Sequence record: PZ452584.1
Length of the DNA stretch: 64,000 nt
Origin: a phage
Direction: 5' to 3' (one strand)
Shown here: positions 48,387 to 59,724 of the stretch, in pieces
Layout: each line of letters begins with the position of its first letter
Numbering within the stretch: the first letter of the stretch is position 1
Made by a program: the position numbers and the translations under genes
Notes under the pieces: model-generated
The model's input: the letters and a program-made list of their open reading frames with translations, nothing else
What the model was told of the DNA's origin: nothing
Database searches by the model: none

Positions 48387-49215
48387 TTATATATTTCCAA
48401 TTATAGCCTTCAACACTTTTACGTTCGCCATTTAAACATTTTAAAATATTTCCTTTGCTAGAAATATTAAAATATTTTGCTGCGTCTGGTATATAATTAA
48501 ATGTTTTTAAAAGAACACCATCTTTATATGCGCCAAATAAATTAAGAGTATATTTTTCTCGAAGACGCTGATGTTTCCTTTTCATAACCTCAGGATTTGC
48601 ATACGCCAACTTCAATGAATTTCTGTGTTTTTCTTTTACTTCAGGTTTTTGCATTGCTAACTTAGTTAGCCTGGAAATTTTATTTCTAACTTCGTCAGTT
48701 TTCATTGCATTTGACAAATTTAATAAAGTTTTATTTCTAACTTCAGGTTTTTGCATTGCTAACTTAGTTAGTTCTCTATGTCTTTTTCTAAAATCGTCAT
48801 CCTTCCATATATTTTTCGATAATTTTGACATAGAGCGGTGAAATAATTCCTTTTCACTGGAATACAATTTAAAAATTTCATCCAATTCATCCGCATTAAA
48901 TCTATCGGTATTCGAGTTTATCATTCTATGAAAGGCATAACACATTTTACTATTGCTTGTTTTAGCTAAATAGTAATGAGCTAACGCATGGTCATAATAT
49001 GACAAATTAACAATATTCCATTTATCTGTTTTATATTCAGGAAATATAGATTTGGGAAGCACGTGATGTGCTTCCGTTTTTCCTTTTATTTTAGGATTAT
49101 TATAATTTTTTGTTATCAAATCAACATATGACAATAGTAAATCATTATTTTCTTCAAATATTAAAGCTAATTTATCATTCACAAAATCGCAAGGATAAAA
49201 TCTATCATAATTCAT
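48376..49215 (-). CDS. putative HNH homing endonuclease (MobD-like) 279 aa
   Basis: KTEAHHVLPKSIFPEY...NIVNLSYYDHALAH HNH-like motif plus repeated KLAMQKPEV modules; first 9-10 residues mirror the nrdG N-terminus; sits between nrdD and nrdG. Confidence 0.75.
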   Translation of the reverse strand: MNYDRFYPCDFVNDKLALIFEENNDLLLSYVDLITKNYNNPKIKGKTEAHHVLPKSIFPEYKTDKWNIVNLSYYDHALAHYYLAKTSNSKMCYAFHRMINSNTDRFNADELDEIFKLYSSEKELFHRSMSKLSKNIWKDDDFRKRHRELTKLAMQKPEVRNKTLLNLSNAMKTDEVRNKISRLTKLAMQKPEVKEKHRNSLKLAYANPEVMKRKHQRLREKYTLNLFGAYKDGVLLKTFNYIPDAAKYFNISSKGNILKCLNGERKSVEGYNWKYINEL

Positions 49216-51029
49216 TGGTGTTTAACCCTATGCATGATTTCTTTATTTTTACCGAGATTAAATCCGCGTTCGTTCGGGTTTCCAAGATATCCGCATGTTC
49301 TTCTTATTGTATTCATCTTTTTAGGATCAGTTTCTCCACAAATAGAACAAACAAATCCGTTTTCAGTAGGAGTCATTTCATGGGTACTTCCACATGTAAA
49401 ACATTTATCTACTGGCATATTAACACCAAAATAATCTAAATGTTGTGCAGCATAATCCCATACGGCCTCAAGGCCTTTTAGGTTATTTTTCATATCAGGA
49501 AGTTCAACATAAGAAATGTGACCACCTGTCGCAATGAAATGATATGGTGCTTCACGAGAAATTTTTTCAAACGGAGTAATATTTTCTTCTACTGAAACGT
49601 GGAAACTGTTAGTGTACCATCCTTTATCAGTAACATCCTTTACACTTCCATATTTTTCGGTATCGAGTTTACAGAAGCGATAACAAAGGTTTTCAGCAGG
49701 AGTAGAATACAAACTAAAAGCAAATCCGGTTCTTTCAGTCCACTGTTTAAGATGGGCATTCATTTTAGTTAAAATTTCTTGTCCAATATCACGACCGGCA
49801 AGAATATTCAATTCGTGAATACCAATGTATCCTAGAGACACTGAACTTCTACCGTTTTTAAATAACTCAATTATGTCGTCATCAGGTTTAAGACGAACCC
49901 CGAATGCACCTTCTTGGTAAAGAATAGGAGCAACAGTAGCTTTAACTCCTTTTAAGGAACTAATTCTACACATCAAGGCTTCAAAACATAAATCCATTCG
50001 TTCATTGAACAATTCGATAAATTTCTGTTCATTGAACTGTGTTCCAATATAAGAATCTAACGCAATACGAGGAAGATTCAGTGTTACAACACCGAGATTA
50101 TTACGTCCATCAAGAATTTCATTGCCAGTCGAATCTTTCCATACGCTCAAGAAACTACGACAACCCATTGGAGAAACAGGAATAGATGAGCCGGTGATAG
50201 CTTTATTGTTCTTAGCTGAAATAATATCAGGATACATTCTTTTGCTTGCGCACTCTAGAGCAAGCTGTTTAATATCATAGTTCGGATCGTCTTTATAAAG
50301 ATTAACACCTTCTTCAACGAACATAACAAGCTTAGGGAAAATAGGAGTTATCCCATCACGACCGAGACCTTTAATACGATTTTTCAGAATTGCTTTCTGA
50401 ATCATTCGTTCAGTCCAGTCAGTTCCTGTACCAAATGTAATTGTTACAAAAGGTGTTTGTCCGTTTGAACTAAAGAGAGTATTTACTTCATATTCATAAG
50501 CTTGGAATGCATCGTATACGTCTTTTTCTGTTTTAGATTGGGCATAATTCAGTGCATCGGCGATTTGCCATTTTTCTGCGTCCTCGATATGTTTTGCATA
50601 GGTGCGTTTAACATAAGGAGAAAGTACTTTATCTACATTCGCAAAAGTCGTTCCGCCGTATTGGTGAGAAGCAACCTGTGCGGTAATTTGTGCCATAATT
50701 GCAGTAGCAACGCCAATTGATTTAGGAGTTTCAATCTGCGCATTACCAAGCTTAAATCCGTTCTCAAGCATTCCTTTTAAATCTACTAAACAGCAATTAG
50801 TAAATGGAAGAGCAGGGGAATAATCAATATCATGAAAATGAATAATTCCGCTTTCATGCGCTTTCATAATAAAAGACGGGACCATATTTTTGGCAATGTG
50901 TTTAGACACAATACCAGCCATAAGGTCCCGTTGAGTTGGAAAAACACGAGAATCTTTGTTAGCATTCTCGTTTAAAAGGTCTTTATTAGTTTTATGAATC
51001 AATCCTTCAATTTCTTTTTCAATTGTCAT
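49212..51029 (-). CDS. nrdD: NrdD, anaerobic ribonucleotide reductase (glycyl radical enzyme)
   Basis: 605 aa uninterrupted; C-terminal glycyl radical motif RRTCGYLG; same length as spliced T4 NrdD. Confidence 0.97.
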   Translation of the reverse strand: MTIEKEIEGLIHKTNKDLLNENANKDSRVFPTQRDLMAGIVSKHIAKNMVPSFIMKAHESGIIHFHDIDYSPALPFTNCCLVDLKGMLENGFKLGNAQIETPKSIGVATAIMAQITAQVASHQYGGTTFANVDKVLSPYVKRTYAKHIEDAEKWQIADALNYAQSKTEKDVYDAFQAYEYEVNTLFSSNGQTPFVTITFGTGTDWTERMIQKAILKNRIKGLGRDGITPIFPKLVMFVEEGVNLYKDDPNYDIKQLALECASKRMYPDIISAKNNKAITGSSIPVSPMGCRSFLSVWKDSTGNEILDGRNNLGVVTLNLPRIALDSYIGTQFNEQKFIELFNERMDLCFEALMCRISSLKGVKATVAPILYQEGAFGVRLKPDDDIIELFKNGRSSVSLGYIGIHELNILAGRDIGQEILTKMNAHLKQWTERTGFAFSLYSTPAENLCYRFCKLDTEKYGSVKDVTDKGWYTNSFHVSVEENITPFEKISREAPYHFIATGGHISYVELPDMKNNLKGLEAVWDYAAQHLDYFGVNMPVDKCFTCGSTHEMTPTENGFVCSICGETDPKKMNTIRRTCGYLGNPNERGFNLGKNKEIMHRVKHQ

Positions 51030-52798: not shown

Positions 52799-53041
52799 TT
52801 ATTCCTTAATTCCTAGTACTTGTTTAAAAGTCTCGTCGTAATCAAGACTTTGGCCCGTTTGTTCTTTATGTTTGTATATAATATCACTTACTTCTGATAG
52901 CATATTTTTATATGAACGAGTTAAAGCAGATTTAAGCACGCTGTATCTATCAGGAAATTTACCGTGTTCATTATAATAAGCTATTGCTAATTCACGGACT
53001 GCCTTTTCGGCAGTCTCCATATATTCTTTACGCTTTGTCAT
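52799..53041 (-). CDS. hypothetical protein about 80 aa
   Basis: ORF track trimmed to internal ATG (M6); listed first codon TTG. Confidence 0.5.
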
Positions 53042-53345
53042 TTTCTTCTCGGTCAAATCGGTGTTTACAATGGCGACATTTATAACGAAGATTATTAGTC
53101 TGCCAATGGACTAATTGCACCTGTTCAGTTCCACATTCAGGGCAATTAGGAACGTTTTTAGAAGCTCTTTCACGTCGCTCAACCATAACCATAATAGCGT
53201 CCCAGGCTGGCGGTTTAAAATCTAAATCGTCACAACCATGAATCTTTCCACGCATTTCCAAATCGTCTTCTTCACCAGCCATAATAATTTTAATTAGACT
53301 AGAATTACTTGAAGCTGCAATATCTTCTAATAAACGCTTTTTCAT
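53028..53345 (-). CDS. zinc-ribbon protein 105 aa
   Basis: ORF track; C-terminal CPECG...CRHC four-Cys ribbon. Confidence 0.55.
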
Positions 53346-54268
53346 TTCAATACCTCAATAGCATTACGTAAACCATTTGCTTTGGCGGTTAAAGTCTTAA
53401 GAACTTTAGTATGCTCTTCAATCTGTTTTTCAACTTCAATCAAACGGGCACTGAGATATTCGCGTTCTTCTTTCATATTATCATTCCCATGATTGGGCTT
53501 TGGCGTAGGTTTAAATTTATTAGGGTCCTTTAACTTAATAACAACTTTAGTTTCAAACAGTGAAAGACCATAATTCGTATTATCATCAAAGGATTCAACT
53601 ACGTCCATTTTAGACAATAACGTATGAAGATTATAAGTCAAAGAACGAATCGTTTTATTATGTTTATTAGCTTCACATGGTTTCATATATGGAAGATTTT
53701 TATATATTTCATGCGGAGCACAAACAATAATTGACAATTCAAATGGTCCATTCTGTGATGATGGAATGAATTTAGCCGTAACCCAATCTTTTACATTTAC
53801 ATTAATAGTACGATCATCGCCATGACAAAACAGTCTACGAGAATGCTTAAAAAGCATATTCACATTATTATTAAATTCGTGTGAAAACTCACTGGCAAAT
53901 TTTTCTTTACTATTTTTAGAAAACCATTCTTCTAAATAAGTTCTTTTCACGTCATTAATAATATTAAATGTAACAACATTATCATTTGATACATTAGTCT
54001 CAATGTAGCTTGGATACATAAATTTTTTAACATTATTAACAGCTATCACAGAAGATAGTAATCGGGAACGTTTGAACCACTCGAGCAAAGAACCAAGAGA
54101 ATGTGAATACGCATTTTGTGTATCTTTACAAATATGGTTTTCCCATCCAATATAGTCTAAAAAATCACGAAGAATATTATTGATTACTGCTCTGTGTCCT
54201 ATCTGATAATTACGATGTTTAGTAATAAGACTGTCAAAATAATCAATATAATGTTTACGAGTTTTCAT
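53342..54268 (-). CDS. coiled-coil protein, tandem paralog family member 1 (308 aa)
   Basis: ORF track; starts MKTRK; C-terminal about 45 aa predicted coiled coil; shares architecture with the next three genes. Confidence 0.7.
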   Translation of the reverse strand: MKTRKHYIDYFDSLITKHRNYQIGHRAVINNILRDFLDYIGWENHICKDTQNAYSHSLGSLLEWFKRSRLLSSVIAVNNVKKFMYPSYIETNVSNDNVVTFNIINDVKRTYLEEWFSKNSKEKFASEFSHEFNNNVNMLFKHSRRLFCHGDDRTINVNVKDWVTAKFIPSSQNGPFELSIIVCAPHEIYKNLPYMKPCEANKHNKTIRSLTYNLHTLLSKMDVVESFDDNTNYGLSLFETKVVIKLKDPNKFKPTPKPNHGNDNMKEEREYLSARLIEVEKQIEEHTKVLKTLTAKANGLRNAIEVLK

Positions 54269-54320
54269 GTTCTTCTCACTTGGTTAATGATTTATACTCC
54301 GAGCCATCCTTGGCTTTAAA

Positions 54321-55322
54321 TTACTTAATTAACTGTAAAGCTTGTTCCAAACTATCAAGACGATTAACAGATTCTTCCCAAATCCTTTTAGCCTGCTCAT
54401 ATTCTTTCTGCGCTTTATTAGAAATTTCTAGAGCTTCTTTATAAGCTTTTTCTAATGCAATAACTTCTGGACGAATTTCTACCGGTTCAGGTGAATCATC
54501 AAGATTATCCATTAGTTCCTCAAGGGTAGTTTCTTCTTTAGGAGTATTCACAATTTCATCACATTTTTGTTGGTAAATTTCTTTATCAGTAGGTGAGTAC
54601 GCGCACTTTACTTCACGAAGACTAATTACAATTTTATATCCTTCCCAGCCGCATATATTCTTAAAAGGATATGTATGAATATTTTCTACTGTTTCCATAC
54701 AAAGTAATGCGGTCTCTAATTGACGAGTTATAGTGCTAGCAATTGAGAAAAATTTATTAATGTTCTTTTGGTTAGTTTCTGGTGTAAAAAATCCATAATT
54801 CACAAAAATAGATACTTTATTTTTATCAAGTTCATATTCTTTTATGATAATCATATCAGAAGCCAAAGGATGAATTTGACGATAATCGCCATAACATAAT
54901 TTAGAAGCTGATTTTAGAATCTGTCCTTTGAAAAGTCTGAAATTACTAATCCAACGACGAGTAAAAATATTCTCAGGGTCTTCTTTATTATTAAGATGAT
55001 AAGAATTAACATCACCGAACCAATTATATCCTACTACATCTTTGGTTCGTTTAATTTCTTTCCCAAAATTACCAAGAATATCCCGATTAACCAAATATGA
55101 AAGAAGACGAGACTCTTTAAAGGTTTTCTTGATAACATCTTTATCTACACGGCTAGAAATTTTACGAATTTCATGAATAAATTTAGTAGAAGAAACAATA
55201 CTTGCATCAACACTATTGAGCCATTGATTGATAATAGAAAGAACGATATTTTGACCAAACATCGGTATAGCTTTATCATCAATAACGCTATTGAATGATT
55301 TGATATATTCGTTACGAGTCAT
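54321..55322 (-). CDS. coiled-coil protein, tandem paralog family member 2 (about 333 aa)
   Basis: ORF track trimmed to internal ATG (M18, MTRNEY...) with GAGGAG RBS and early promoter upstream; C-terminal coiled coil. Confidence 0.7.
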   Translation of the reverse strand: MTRNEYIKSFNSVIDDKAIPMFGQNIVLSIINQWLNSVDASIVSSTKFIHEIRKISSRVDKDVIKKTFKESRLLSYLVNRDILGNFGKEIKRTKDVVGYNWFGDVNSYHLNNKEDPENIFTRRWISNFRLFKGQILKSASKLCYGDYRQIHPLASDMIIIKEYELDKNKVSIFVNYGFFTPETNQKNINKFFSIASTITRQLETALLCMETVENIHTYPFKNICGWEGYKIVISLREVKCAYSPTDKEIYQQKCDEIVNTPKEETTLEELMDNLDDSPEPVEIRPEVIALEKAYKEALEISNKAQKEYEQAKRIWEESVNRLDSLEQALQLIK

Positions 55323-55351
55323 ATTAATCTCCTCAGTAGAAAGTAAGAACA

Positions 55352-55380
55352 TTATACCACATCCTTGTGGCAAAGTAAAC
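55352..55380 (-). promoter_or_regulatory. early promoter for coiled-coil paralog 2
   Basis: Minus strand GTTTAC-N17-GTATAAT with palindromic spacer CCACAAGGATGTGG; approximate. Confidence 0.55.
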
Positions 55381-56399
55381 TAGTTCAGTGCATTTAGTGC
55401 ATTGTTCAGTTTAGAACGTTGCTTTGTCAGATTTTGAACCCTTGACTGAGCTTGTTCTAACACCTTTTCAGCTTCTAGCACTTCATTGGTCGCTTTAACG
55501 AGTTCATCATCTACTGCCTTAAGAGACTTCTCAATCGCGTCAGCGTGCCATTTTTCTACAGGTTTAAAATTTGAATTTTCAGTAGGAAGAAAACTCACTT
55601 TATTAAGTTTACATGCATCTATATTGCTTGAGCTATACATCCAAAATTTAGGATCGTTTGATAAGTAATTGGATAAATTTAAGTTATCTTGCACTTCCTG
55701 CTTTTTCTCTTGCGGGACTTCGTCCTTTCTCAAAAAATCGTATTTAAATGAAACGATCATATCAAGTTCATATGATGTTGTATCTAACTTAAATCGTTCA
55801 AAACGAGGTAAAATCTTAGATTGAACAGCAGCAACAACATCCATATACTTAAATGCTTCTGTCAATTGTGATTTAAGGCATTCACAAATTGAAAGAGAAT
55901 TTTTTGTATTAGGTTTAAAGCTAATTCGTGCAGTTCTATTATTTTCTTTTAACGGTCTTACTTCCATCTGAAGAGTATAACCATCAAATTTCAGGTTCTT
56001 TAAGTTAATATCAGAGCCTTTTAATCGACTAGCAGTAGACAAAATTTGCTTTAATTGTCTACGGAACAGAGCAATAAATCTCCATTCAATACGATAATGA
56101 TTTGGATTGAAAAATCCAGATGATAAATCGACCTTACTTTGACCAACGCCTTGAACAAATAGAGGATTTTTATAATCAATAGTTTTACAGAAATCGGTGA
56201 GCTGCTCACGAGCAGTTATTTGTGTAATATACCCCGCTTTACTAAAATGACGTAACCATTCACTGTTGTTCATATATTTAAAGTGAATATCACGATTAAC
56301 TTTATCAGGGTCTAAATTATTTTGGCACAAAAATGTCATAACATCACGAGTATAGCTGGCATTACGAACCATATCTTCAATTTGAGAACGAGTTTTCAT
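55380..56399 (-). CDS. coiled-coil protein, tandem paralog family member 3 (339 aa)
   Basis: ORF track; starts MKTRSQ; C-terminal coiled coil ...LEAEKVLEQAQSRVQNLTKQRSKLNNALNALN. Confidence 0.7.
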   Translation of the reverse strand: MKTRSQIEDMVRNASYTRDVMTFLCQNNLDPDKVNRDIHFKYMNNSEWLRHFSKAGYITQITAREQLTDFCKTIDYKNPLFVQGVGQSKVDLSSGFFNPNHYRIEWRFIALFRRQLKQILSTASRLKGSDINLKNLKFDGYTLQMEVRPLKENNRTARISFKPNTKNSLSICECLKSQLTEAFKYMDVVAAVQSKILPRFERFKLDTTSYELDMIVSFKYDFLRKDEVPQEKKQEVQDNLNLSNYLSNDPKFWMYSSSNIDACKLNKVSFLPTENSNFKPVEKWHADAIEKSLKAVDDELVKATNEVLEAEKVLEQAQSRVQNLTKQRSKLNNALNALN

Positions 56400-56407
56400 G
56401 GTGTTCC

Positions 56408-57322
56408 TTAAGATTTAAGTAAATCAACAATTTTAATTAACTTTTCACGCTCAGATTTAGCTTTACTACTCAATCCAGATAGTCTGAAAATTTCATCATC
56501 ATATTGTTGAATAGAAATATTCAGCTCTTCAATTTGCTTATTAAAATAATCAATTTGTTCAGAATGTTTTTCGTTACTACGAACTGGTACAGGTTTTGTA
56601 GGCAATTTAGTTGAACTGAATTCATCCGGGTGATAAATTAAAATACAACTTGAACCAATAGGGCATTTTGCACCAGATGAATATTCTAATGTTCCGGCTT
56701 CTTTTAAAACTTCAAAAGCTAAACAGAGATGATGCCCCATATTAACATAATCTGTAGAGTGAGCTCTGACGTAATAATCATCTCCACGAGTGCTAAATTT
56801 AAAGCATTTAAGGTCTTCTGTATTATTAGTTTTAAAAATCATTTGTTTATCTAGACCTTTAGCCAATCGAGCACCTAATGCTAATAATCGTCGTTGATTT
56901 TCCCACAAATCCGCAATCATTTGATCGAATGATAATTTTGGCATTAGTCGACCATAAAGGTCATATCCTTTATTATAATTACGAAGGATTTCACTCGCGT
57001 TAATACGAGACAATGCTCCAATTTTATTAAGGGCTTTCATAATGCGATTAGATAAACTCATTCCAGATCCGTTTGTTCGCTGTAAATGTTTTTCTAATCC
57101 AAATCCAATATCAACTTTAAACTTATCTAAAATTTCGGCGTGAACATCTCTGTCAATAACATTCAAATCCAAAGTTGTGTTAAATCTATGAAAAAATTTA
57201 TCTGGCTCTCCACGACGAAATACAGTCCATTCATTCATCATTTTTTTATTAACTAAAGATTTAATTACTGCATTGACATTATTAATTACTACTGACATAT
57301 TTTCCTCACTCAATTTTACCAA
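56408..57322 (-). CDS. coiled-coil protein, tandem paralog family member 4 (about 300 aa)
   Basis: ORF track; C-terminal coiled coil; start may be internal (M9). Confidence 0.65.
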   Translation of the reverse strand: MVKLSEENMSVVINNVNAVIKSLVNKKMMNEWTVFRRGEPDKFFHRFNTTLDLNVIDRDVHAEILDKFKVDIGFGLEKHLQRTNGSGMSLSNRIMKALNKIGALSRINASEILRNYNKGYDLYGRLMPKLSFDQMIADLWENQRRLLALGARLAKGLDKQMIFKTNNTEDLKCFKFSTRGDDYYVRAHSTDYVNMGHHLCLAFEVLKEAGTLEYSSGAKCPIGSSCILIYHPDEFSSTKLPTKPVPVRSNEKHSEQIDYFNKQIEELNISIQQYDDEIFRLSGLSSKAKSEREKLIKIVDLLKS

Positions 57323-57707
57323 TTACGCGGAATAAGATTGAACAGACTATATAAGTACCACATATAGATTGAACTAATGCCATTCCAAAGAACCAAACAA
57401 TATTATCAAACCATGTCTGTTTTACGTCGAAAGGACGTAAACTTACAGTAATATTATCACCTTTTTCTATTGAAGAATACATCTCTGGGGAAATATATTC
57501 ACTAAATCTATAACCGTCTTTGAGTTCATATACAGCAATAAACGATAAACTAGACCCCTTTCCTTGAGTTCCTGTAAGGGTATTAACTACAGTAACATCA
57601 TAATCTTTATAATGCATATAATCATTAATTGCGTAATAACCATATGCAATTACTATACATAAACAACATATCAATAAATTCAATCTTTTAATTATCAACT
57701 GTTTCAT
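57306..57707 (-). CDS. membrane protein 133 aa
   Basis: ORF track; N- and C-terminal hydrophobic helices. Confidence 0.55.
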   Translation of the reverse strand: MKQLIIKRLNLLICCLCIVIAYGYYAINDYMHYKDYDVTVVNTLTGTQGKGSSLSFIAVYELKDGYRFSEYISPEMYSSIEKGDNITVSLRPFDVKQTWFDNIVWFFGMALVQSICGTYIVCSILFRVIGKIE

Positions 57708-57762
57708 AATAATCTCAATTAAAAGGGCTTAGAACCATTATACCATCCTTGGTATAAAGCGG

Positions 57763-58290
57763 TTATGCGAGTACCGTCTTTAACCGTTCTTCAAACTTCC
57801 GAAGAGTGTTCTGGCGTTCAGCTCTTTGCTTTTTGTAAGTTTCAATACGCTCTGAAATGAGAGTGTATCGTTCATTTACTGATTCTTTCATAAAATCAGG
57901 AATTTCACGAGAAGCTTTAATCTCGTCAAATTTATCAATAACAGCTTGCTCTTCAGCAATTAAGTTATCATACATCAAAATATCTTTCTTGATGAACTCA
58001 ATATCTTCTTGAGTTACACGAGATAATTTAGATGCTTTATCCTTTTTGTACTGTTCGTTAGTATCACGAGACCAGTGTAATGTACGATTTTTATTCGTAT
58101 TTTTGTAAATTTCTACAATACCAATCTCATCGATAATAACGATCCAATTCCAACGGGATTTATAAATTTGTCCTCCATCAACCGTGATTTCACCTCCGAT
58201 TGAGATGTCATTAAAGAACTTGCTTTGTGCTTCAGATTTAAATTTACCATCGTTGTAATTTACCAGGTTGAAAATATCTTTAGCATTCAT
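57763..58290 (-). CDS. hypothetical protein about 175 aa
   Basis: ORF track trimmed to internal ATG (M21) following PeSL leader and GGAGGAACAG RBS. Confidence 0.6.
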   Translation of the reverse strand: MNAKDIFNLVNYNDGKFKSEAQSKFFNDISIGGEITVDGGQIYKSRWNWIVIIDEIGIVEIYKNTNKNRTLHWSRDTNEQYKKDKASKLSRVTQEDIEFIKKDILMYDNLIAEEQAVIDKFDEIKASREIPDFMKESVNERYTLISERIETYKKQRAERQNTLRKFEERLKTVLA

Positions 58291-58291
58291 T

Positions 58292-58370
58292 TTCTGTTCC
58301 TCCGTAGTTGATAGTTGTATAGTACCACAGAGGAACGGTCTTGTAAACAACTAAAAGAAACTTCTTTCAC
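58292..58370 (-). repeat. PeSL-like cassette copy 6
   Basis: GTTTAC-N18-TACTATACAACTATCAACTACGGAGGAACAGAAAATG; approximate. Confidence 0.7.
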
Positions 58371-58665
58371 AATTTTTTCCACTGAACCAAGCGCTCACTG
58401 CTTTCTTAGTCTCAGGAGCAGTATTATCCATAAACCATTCAAAGGCAGCCTTTTTATGATTCTGGAGGGCTTCTCGGGCTTTAATCTGCTCACGGTCTAT
58501 TAACACTAACATATGAGCCTTTCTTGTCACCAGGGGCTTCTTATGATTTTTTGAATATTCCCAATCATTTGTCCATCGCATCGTTGTTGCGAATTGAAGT
58601 ACAGCTTCTTTAATCTTAGTTTCGTAAATTTCACGAGCCTTTGAGTATAACATCATTACCTCCAT
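58351..58665 (-). CDS. hypothetical protein 104 aa
   Basis: ORF track; start among ATG GAG GTA ATG ATG uncertain. Confidence 0.5.
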   Translation of the reverse strand: MEVMMLYSKAREIYETKIKEAVLQFATTMRWTNDWEYSKNHKKPLVTRKAHMLVLIDREQIKAREALQNHKKAAFEWFMDNTAPETKKAVSAWFSGKNCERSFF

Positions 58666-58755: not shown

Positions 58756-59724
58756 TTATTTCAGAAGAGTAACCTCAGCGATTTCTTCCCAGCCGTTTTT
58801 GTCGGTCATAATAAAGTCAGCAAGATAAAGAGCAGTACGCAGTGAAACATTGCGTAAACGATTAACATTGACTTTCATCCATGATAATGCTTTATAAGTT
58901 TCTTCATCAGAAAGACCACGCTTTTGCATCATGTCGGTTGAAAGAATAACATCTTCAACCCTGACCATAATTTCTTCATTAGTGTGAACACCCAAATCCA
59001 AATAAACTGAGCGGGACACTAATGCTTGTAAATGTGGAGCAAGTTTAGTACCACGGTCTAATTCGCGGTCAATGTCAACGTTTGTGATAAAAACAATCGT
59101 TCCTTTAAATTCAAACTCACGCTCAATGCCTTTTTCTTCTAAGTAAGAAGATGCAGTGCTCCAGCAGACTTTACGGGTCTCTCCAGTGTCCAGAGCGGCT
59201 TTTAGAAGATTAAGAATATCCATATCAGAGAAAACATCCACATCATCAATCAAAAGGACAGAATTCTCTTCACGATTATTCCAAAGCTGCTCATAAAGAC
59301 CGATACCGGAGATTTTACCGTTAATGCTTTTATATTCAATGTATCCATTATCATTTGCTTTATTTAAAGCTTTATCTAAAGAATACGTTTTACCAATACC
59401 CGCCGCACCAGAGATAATTAATGAACGAATGTTTCCGTTAATAATACCATTCGTCATCATTCCCATAACATTAAATCTTTTATTAATGCGGGTTTTCATA
59501 TCTTCATATGATTCTTTAACTTCTTCAACTTTTACACCATCATATGAAATGTCTGATTTGTAAACCCAAACACCGCGACGTTTACCGTCAATTTCAACAA
59601 AAACTTTACCATCTCCTTGTGCATCTACCGGAGCATTATCTGGGAACCATTCACCTAAGAGCTCAAAAGTTCCAGAGATTTCTTTACCAAAGTAGATACC
59701 CTTATTGATAGTTACAGTTTTCAT
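58756..59724 (-). CDS. P-loop NTPase (Walker A/B) 322 aa
   Basis: ORF track trimmed to internal ATG (M5) after PeSL leader; Walker A GAAGIGKT, Walker B-like VLLIDDVD; own promoter, terminator hairpin upstream. Confidence 0.7.
   Translation of the reverse strand: MKTVTINKGIYFGKEISGTFELLGEWFPDNAPVDAQGDGKVFVEIDGKRRGVWVYKSDISYDGVKVEEVKESYEDMKTRINKRFNVMGMMTNGIINGNIRSLIISGAAGIGKTYSLDKALNKANDNGYIEYKSINGKISGIGLYEQLWNNREENSVLLIDDVDVFSDMDILNLLKAALDTGETRKVCWSTASSYLEEKGIEREFEFKGTIVFITNVDIDRELDRGTKLAPHLQALVSRSVYLDLGVHTNEEIMVRVEDVILSTDMMQKRGLSDEETYKALSWMKVNVNRLRNVSLRTALYLADFIMTDKNGWEEIAEVTLLK

Follow-up and report, generated by a model that had tools for sequence, protein, structure and literature searches.

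The question raised by four adjacent open reading frames (ORFs) on the minus strand of a phage genome is whether they form one protein family and what that family does for the phage. The ORFs lie at 53342-57322 of the stretch analysed here, 64,000 nucleotides of sequence record PZ452584.1 (the window), and were found to be already known T4 genes, nrdC.3, nrdC.4, nrdC.5 and nrdC.6. The window genes and their proteins are abbreviated C3, C4, C5 and C6. T4 is a reference phage, yet three of the four genes are without an assigned function and the fourth has a genetic phenotype only. Comparison of family profiles revealed that C3, C4 and C5 are homologous, and predicted structures make it very probable that C6 is a member of the same superfamily, which would extend across the Straboviridae. 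Published genetics on the T4 orthologue showed that NrdC.5 neutralises the host defence protein Dsr1. On balance, the four appear to be soluble cytoplasmic early accessory proteins of a single rapidly diverging superfamily that act as immune antagonists, a reading held with slightly more confidence than doubt.

Identity and kinship of the four genes

By sequence, the source phage is a Tequatrovirus. Over 53000-58400 its DNA shows 97% identity to a T4 assembly, and 743 phage records contain related sequence, nearly all of them from Escherichia, Shigella or Yersinia T-even phages. Protein identity to T4 amounts to 96.8% for NrdC.3, 97% for NrdC.4, 93.8% for NrdC.5 and 97% for NrdC.6, and both the gene order nrdC.6-nrdC.5-nrdC.4 and the strand are those of the T4 reference NC_000866. 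Identity of about 97% and matching surrounding genes therefore identify the four as orthologues of T4 nrdC.3 to nrdC.6. With ATG starts, the minus-strand genes are C3 (53342-54268; 308 amino acids (aa), starting MKTRK), C4 (54321-55322; 333 aa, starting MTRN), C5 (55380-56399; 339 aa, starting MKTRS) and C6 (56408-57298; 296 aa, with its C-terminal tail intact). Start codons and lengths agree with the annotation of T4-like records, and the original prediction, made from the letters of the window, had described four consecutive minus-strand genes of 308, about 333, 339 and about 300 aa, with the starts MKTR(K/S) for two and MTRN for one. The mechanical ORF of C4 runs from 54321 to 55373, with a TTG at 55373 as its upstream limit, and the ORF of C6 from 56408 to 57322; the ATG codons are at 55322 and 57298. 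The genes are separated by 52, 57 and 8 base pairs (bp), and the stop codon of C3 overlaps the start of nrdC.2.

The same prediction had stated that the proteins could not be assigned to a known family. Curated families were found for all four, and the statement was therefore wrong. C5 scored 386.7 bits (E=1.1e-115) with Pfam PF23882 (DUF7235), for which the cut-off is 30, and the match covered profile positions 1-307 of 307. In PHROG, C3 and C4 both fell into phrog_1435 (E=7e-102 and 3e-168), C5 into phrog_2351 and C6 into phrog_2257 (E=3e-151). PF26897 (Phage_T4_Y04OP), the Pfam family of C3 and C4, was carried by every C4 homologue among the matches listed, and PF26899 (Phage_T4_Y05B) by 105 of 105 C6 homologues. 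All three Pfam families are recent and without an assigned function. A profile of the C4 family was searched against 1.84 billion representative proteins and returned 7 matches, none of them a bacterial or distant relative; all belonged to the C3/C4 family or were fragments of it, and the search thus gave no functional lead. Searches of the PDB with single proteins and profiles gave no credible sequence match for C3-C6, the array proteins had no match in NCBIfam, and the PADLOC defence models gave no family at E<=0.1.

The kinship of the four proteins to one another is scarcely visible in direct comparison. Among the array proteins, BLASTP with a 9-protein database joined only C3 and C4 (24.7% over 275 aa, E=0.002), and C6 was without a match to the others. 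Pairwise BLASTP was rejected as a paralogy test, being too insensitive and merely borderline for C3-C4, and HMMER profiles of each family run against the other families were also set aside, as the C4 profile reached C3 at 49 bits and no other match was obtained. Family alignments built from homologues were then compared with hhalign. The last 60 residues were removed from each protein so that only the bodies were aligned, because coiled-coil composition in the tails might otherwise give false similarity. The bodies of C3 and C4 matched with 98% probability (P=5e-14) and those of C4 and C5 with 92.5% (P=5e-7). For C3-C5 the P value was 3e-3 (6e-6 when aligned globally), and controls with reversed sequences yielded P=0.25-0.6. 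C3 and C4 can be placed in one sequence family on the strength of their common phrog_1435, the 49-bit score and the hhalign result. For C6 the match was weak (P=0.0035 with C5 and P=0.044 with C4); the aligned segments were collinear.

Predicted structures extended the comparison. AlphaFold2 models were made of C4 and C6, with mean predicted local distance difference test (pLDDT) scores of 83 and 79. In their second halves the two models run through the same elements in the same order. A pair of helices, each about 10 residues long, is followed by a short helix, two strands and a long helix; two more strands then lead to a linker modelled with low confidence and a terminal helix. Searched with Foldseek against BFVD, both models matched the same uncharacterised proteins of 300-335 aa (E=1e-7 to 1e-4, 11-16% identity). 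The proteins common to both searches were A0A7G3KGN9, A0A0A0PZG4, E5EPQ6, A0A345AUV5, E5E4A2 and A0A1V0DXL6, from Enterobacter phage IME523, Pectobacterium phage PM2, Acinetobacter phages Acj9, fHyAci03 and Acj61, and Yersinia phage fHe-Yen9-01. A 332-aa ORF of Karamvirus KMB19 also matched the C6 profile (91%, E=1e-6, 203 columns); KMB19 and IME523 belong to the same genus, and orthology of this ORF to the IME523 protein is not assumed. In Acj61, the products p120 and p121 (E5E4A1 and E5E4A2) are adjacent structural matches encoded between nrdC and nrdC.10 and form a syntenic tandem pair. Comparison of p120 and p121 with the four families by hhalign gave no sequence signal, and the link consists of predicted structure, position and architecture. 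A 257-aa ORF of KMB19 was not counted as a member since it has no tail, and two ORFs of about 350 aa beside nrdC.10 in Aeromonas phage AhMtk13a are not members either, being without the linker-plus-tail architecture.

The original expectation, that the accessory nrdC-tk region of this T4-like phage contains a tandem family whose members have diverged, was thereby borne out, although not by every route: all-versus-all BLASTP was nearly silent, hhalign joined C3 with C4 and C4 with C5, and C6 was attached by way of structure. Pfam keeps NrdC.3-NrdC.6 as three families, and their union into one superfamily widespread in T4-like phages, on profile-profile and structural evidence, is a modest addition of this analysis. 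The content of the array was found to vary by genus. T4 has C3-C4-C5-C6; VR7, JS10 and one metagenomic contig have C4-C5-C6, and JS09 has C3-C5-C6. Elsewhere, two structural homologues are present in Acj61 and one has been recognised so far in Karamvirus KMB19.

Architecture of the array proteins

C3-C6 have a common layout. A body of roughly 250 aa leads through a low-confidence linker to a heptad helix at the C-terminus; the body and the heptad-like C-terminal segment had been predicted. Within the body, the N-terminal region is basic and helical and is followed by a poorly conserved alpha/beta domain. To assess the periodicity of the tails, the last 55 aa of each protein were given a home-made, crude a/d-register score, with 1000 shuffles of the same protein as the yardstick. 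The observed score was reached by none of the shuffles for C3 and C5, by 2 for C6 and by 17 for C4; the periodicity is thus far above shuffles in C3, C5 and C6 and modest in C4. In the AlphaFold2 model of C4 a single 48-residue terminal helix spans residues 285-332, and in that of C6 two terminal helices (243-272 and 278-295) follow the low-confidence linker.

The tail is the best-conserved block of each family. In C3 the last 50 aa (coding region 53345-53494; this and the following tail regions are on the minus strand) are 92% conserved across C3 lineages against a family mean of 66%. The terminal helix of C4 (residues 285-333, coding region 54324-54470, ending ...NRLDSLEQALQLIK) is 86% conserved across genera, with a mean of 40%. 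In C5, the tail (approximately residues 284-339, 55383-55550, ending ...QRSKLNNALNALN) is 53% conserved and the mean is 24%, and in C6 the predicted two-helix tail (residues 243-296, 56411-56572, ending ...EREKLIKIVDLLKS) reaches 73% with a mean of 41%. The least, or nearly the least, conserved segment of C3, C4 and C6 lies in the alpha/beta domain, and C5 is poorly conserved throughout. Related endings were seen in C4 (RLDSLEQALQLIK), C5 (RSKLNNALNALN), C6 (REKLIKIVDLLKS) and Acj61 p120 (KTLNKALEIMML), and likewise in C3; a motif of roughly [RK]-x-[KR]-L-x-x-A-[LI]-x-x-L-K is common to all four families. At the other end of the protein, C3, C4 and C5 have the motif M(K)TRxEYIxxF in common. 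The contrast between a conserved tail motif and a variable body is a further modest addition of this work.

The array proteins are basic overall except for C4 (isoelectric point (pI) 6.2), and in all four the N-terminal half has a net charge of +5 to +12 and a pI of 9.2-10. The idea that they are DNA mimics was rejected because they are basic. No transmembrane-like segment was found in C3-C6, in which the maximum Kyte-Doolittle mean over 19 aa is 0.7-1.15; in the neighbouring membrane protein NrdC.7 the maximum is 2.2.

Several variants of this architecture were noticed in passing. The orthologue of nrdC.8 (57763-58290, 175 aa) also has a heptad tail (0 of 1000 shuffles), which ends much like the others, in ...LRKFEERLKTVLA. 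Conservation is high, with 100% identity to the counterpart in Tequatrovirus KMB22 and 67-84% identity across genera. NrdC.8 was considered as a fifth member, but profile comparison with C3-C6 gave no similarity; it may be a shorter relative having only the tail in common. The T4 reference NC_000866 annotates an NrdC.6 of 275 aa (L008, 3467-4294) ending ...IEELIFLFNNMMMKFSDYLD. Beyond QIEEL this end is the window tail in a different reading frame, consistent with a deletion of 1 nucleotide. The 296-aa form with its coiled-coil tail is present in the window, in the T4 assembly OZ209023 and in most relatives; the 275-aa form is either a sequencing error of the reference or a laboratory-strain mutation that removed the conserved tail. 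In Shigella phage Sf25, some 82 residues (IRAHSTDY...NKQIEEL) are duplicated in tandem within NrdC.6 (P0122, 378 aa), and the junction falls at the same QIEEL position as the T4 reference frameshift; the duplication could be real or an assembly artefact. Protein P0056, from a 167-kb contig, is a natural fusion of the equivalent of NrdC.5 145-271 (its residues 1-129) with that of an RB3-type NrdC.3 139-309 (its residues 130-299). The underlying deletion takes out the C5 tail, the whole of nrdC.4 and the C3 N-terminal region, and leaves two alpha/beta domains and one tail.

Proposed immune antagonism and rival explanations

A function has been reported for one member of the array. A T4 clone lacking accessory genes was unable to plate on ECOR17, and plating was restored by deletion of dsr1 from the host; conversely, cloned dsr1 shielded MG1655 from the T4 deletion clone (Srikant, Guegler and Laub, eLife 2022; PMC9391042). 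Expression of T4 nrdC.5, which was termed an early gene, from a plasmid restored infection by the deletion clone on E. coli with the ECOR17 dsr1 gene (PMC9391042). Dsr1 is a SIR2-domain defence protein thought to deplete NAD+, and in a 2026 preprint its TPR sensor, shared with Avs7, was described as being triggered by a phage major capsid protein (PMC12803255). In the literature searched, no published mechanism of NrdC.5 was found, and neither were functional reports on nrdC.3, nrdC.4 or nrdC.6 beyond Srikant et al. (2022). The window C5 is the orthologue of T4 NrdC.5 (UniProt Y05A_BPT4), with the same neighbours and the full-length PF23882 match. It differs from it in about 6% of residues and is one residue shorter, and the anti-Dsr1 activity is known for the T4 allele. 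Across genera, 'nrdC.5' proteins of Gaprivervirus, Dhakavirus and Mosigvirus fall to 21-27% identity with C5, and thus their specificity may differ. For NrdC.3 and NrdC.4 (PF26897) and NrdC.6 (PF26899), the T4 orthologues are about 97% identical and in the same order and strand; the T4 NrdC.6 of NC_000866 differs in the 275-aa form with a frameshifted tail, in contrast to the window form of 296 aa with its tail.

As nrdC.5 is a published anti-Dsr1 gene, its three neighbours in the array are good candidates for comparable roles against host immunity, and an anti-defence role of NrdC.3, NrdC.4 and NrdC.6 is plausible by paralogy. It is proposed that the paralogues would act as proteins that inhibit host immune sensors stoichiometrically. 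Specificity would reside in the variable body, which would bind the cognate host immune protein, while the conserved tail would either oligomerise the inhibitor or dock it on a common partner. In the case of NrdC.5, the body would probably bind the TPR sensor region of Dsr1, such that the capsid-protein trigger could not activate NAD+ depletion, and NrdC.3, NrdC.4 and NrdC.6 would be the same device directed against other host defence proteins. NrdC.5 may be analogous to DSAD1 of phage SPbeta, also a phage inhibitor of a SIR2 defence protein; DSAD1 reportedly binds the SIR2-family sensor DSR2 in competition with a structural-protein trigger (PMC10973363, PMC10981675).

The conserved tails and their related endings, together with genes that are adjacent and on the same strand, would also suit an arrangement in which the four proteins join through similar C-terminal helices in one hetero-oligomeric complex with a single function. 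This was considered improbable: nrdC.5 alone restored infection from a plasmid (in a deletion clone that may have retained the other three genes), and an obligate four-part complex is at odds with genera that carry C4-C5-C6, C3-C5-C6 or, as in KMB19, one recognised copy.

Divergence of the locus was assessed from protein identity and the ratio of nonsynonymous to synonymous substitution rates (dN/dS) between the window and KMB22. The flanking NrdD, EndoVII, NrdC and NrdC.8 are 99-100% identical, with dN/dS of 0-0.02 and a synonymous rate (dS) of 0.12-0.19; dN/dS over the flanking genes lies within 0-0.08. C4 is 89% identical (dN/dS 0.28), C5 86% (0.21) and C6 96% (0.10), and C3 drops to 63% with a dS of about 1.1; protein divergence of the array is thus far above that of neighbouring genes, in line with the diverged family originally described. 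In C3 the first 25 and last 25-50 residues are conserved and the body is 28-56% identical, which looks like a swapped ancient allele. Across 654 phage records, C3 fell into three discrete identity classes, with identity above 90% in 137, 60-80% in 359 and below 60% in 155. Divergence and varying copy number fit an arms-race locus.

Another explanation is that only NrdC.5 is an immune antagonist and that its paralogues NrdC.3, NrdC.4 and NrdC.6 serve host takeover in other ways; the basic N-terminal helical region might, for example, bind a housekeeping protein or nucleic acid of host or phage. The charge and pI of the N-terminal halves speak for it, as does a long invariant motif in C6 (GYDLYGR ... 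NQRRLLALGARLAKG.DKQM.FKTN), which, with the low dN/dS of 0.10, makes C6 look more constrained than an arms-race gene. Divergence and allele replacement are, however, elevated in C3 and C4 as in C5, and the family is missing or variable in copy number across T4-like genera, which would be unusual for housekeeping takeover. This explanation is unlikely on present evidence but deserves to be kept in sight.

Some of the evidence weighs against immune antagonism by the whole array. The functional data on the family consist of plasmid complementation of a deletion clone by nrdC.5, and the sequence link of C6 is weak (P=0.0035 and 0.044), most of the support coming from predicted structures. The marked basicity of the N-terminal halves might indicate nucleic-acid binding instead of protein inhibition. 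Moreover, dN/dS is below 1 throughout, so that the divergence is explained equally well by relaxed constraint and by positive selection. No known anti-defence protein resembling C3-C6 was found in PDB sequence and fold comparisons.

An early-promoter-like site (GTTTAC...gtggTATAAT; 55351-55379, minus strand) was found directly upstream of nrdC.4 in a promoter scan, as TTTACT-17-TATAAT with a TG extension. In the record of phage SA20RB an early promoter is annotated upstream of nrdC.4 at the equivalent position. From this site and the description of nrdC.5 as early, the array genes appear to be transcribed early.

The alpha/beta domain may resemble phage tail terminator and tail completion proteins in its fold. 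In a fold search, approximately 22 of the 55 top matches were tail terminator, tail completion or collar proteins, with 83-119 residues aligned. They included the gene transfer agent (GTA) particle protein 6tba, the phage 812 terminator, SaPI1 DUF3168, SPP1 gp17-like, P74-26, T5 p142, the Mu terminator and lambda gpU, and Foldseek gave weak matches to proteins of about 150 aa, one of which is named a tail completion protein. One might suppose from these matches that the array encodes divergent structural tail-terminator or tail-completion proteins of virion assembly. In contrast to the fold, the sequences do not match those of lambda gpU, SPP1 gp17-like, T5 p142 or DUF3168: no tail family was hit in Pfam, PHROG or NCBIfam, and the PDB gave no sequence match. 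The genes lie in the nrdC-tk early region with an early-type promoter before nrdC.4, rather than being late genes of a tail module. The likeness is one of fold, not of membership, in genes that are early, accessory and dispensable, and a virion role is hardly to be expected. The apparent tail-terminator-like fold is itself a modest addition. A related and rather doubtful idea is that the family arose from a tail-terminator-fold protein duplicated into the early region, whose descendants would now serve as early-expressed decoys or blockers of host pattern-recognition immune sensors of conserved virion folds. Each paralogue would then occupy a different sensor (Dsr1, Avs-type TPR) before the late structural proteins appear, and the coiled-coil tail would supply oligomeric avidity.

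The original prediction had also named host range, anti-defence and superinfection exclusion as expected roles. Anti-defence is supported for NrdC.5 by the published genetics (PMC9391042), and host range holds only in the sense of immune evasion, not of receptor binding. That the proteins mediate superinfection exclusion, or exclusion at the membrane, is suggested by the position in the accessory region and by that prediction; as the proteins have no transmembrane-like segment, no PADLOC match and soluble predicted folds, exclusion is very improbable.

If immune antagonism by one modular family is correct, the search for new immune antagonists can be focused on nrdC.3, nrdC.4 and nrdC.6 as candidates, and the same reasoning would cover the structural relatives in T4-like phages of Acinetobacter, Enterobacter, Pectobacterium, Yersinia, Klebsiella and Serratia. 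It would also offer a handle on how NrdC.5 stops Dsr1, in terms of the domain that binds and of any need for the tail, and could be of practical use in host-range prediction and in the engineering of T4-like therapeutic phages. As a separate observation, adjacent genes of Acj61 (L012, 1229-3938) encode nicotinamide phosphoribosyltransferase and ribose-phosphate pyrophosphokinase; this is the genome that also carries the NrdC.3-6-like tandem pair p120/p121. The enzyme pair looks like the NAD+-rebuilding kind reported to counter NAD+-depleting defences.

The surrounding genes

On one side, the neighbours of the array are nrdD, gene 49 for endonuclease VII, pin and nrdC; on the other they are nrdC.7 to nrdC.11. 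In the window, nrdD (49212-51029) is a single unbroken ORF of 605 aa. Comparison with NC_000866 showed that T4 nrdD is split by a group I intron carrying I-TevII, followed by mobC. The nrdD intron is therefore absent here, and the phage is a relative of T4 and not T4 itself.

Adjoining the array downstream, the nrdC.2 orthologue (53028-53345, 105 aa) contains a zinc-ribbon-like CxxC...CxxC motif (CPECG...CRHCKH). In the 129-aa protein of KMB22 the C-terminal end has been exchanged for another (0% identity in the last 25-aa block), which makes nrdC.2 a further variable small gene. The orthologue of nrdC.10 (58756-59724) had sub-threshold matches to P-loop and STAND-like NTPases (nSTAND3, AAA_16 and AAA_22, E about 1e-4). 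It is conserved much more widely than the array, being found in 1312 phage records that include Klebsiella, Vibrio, Acinetobacter, Aeromonas and jumbo phages.

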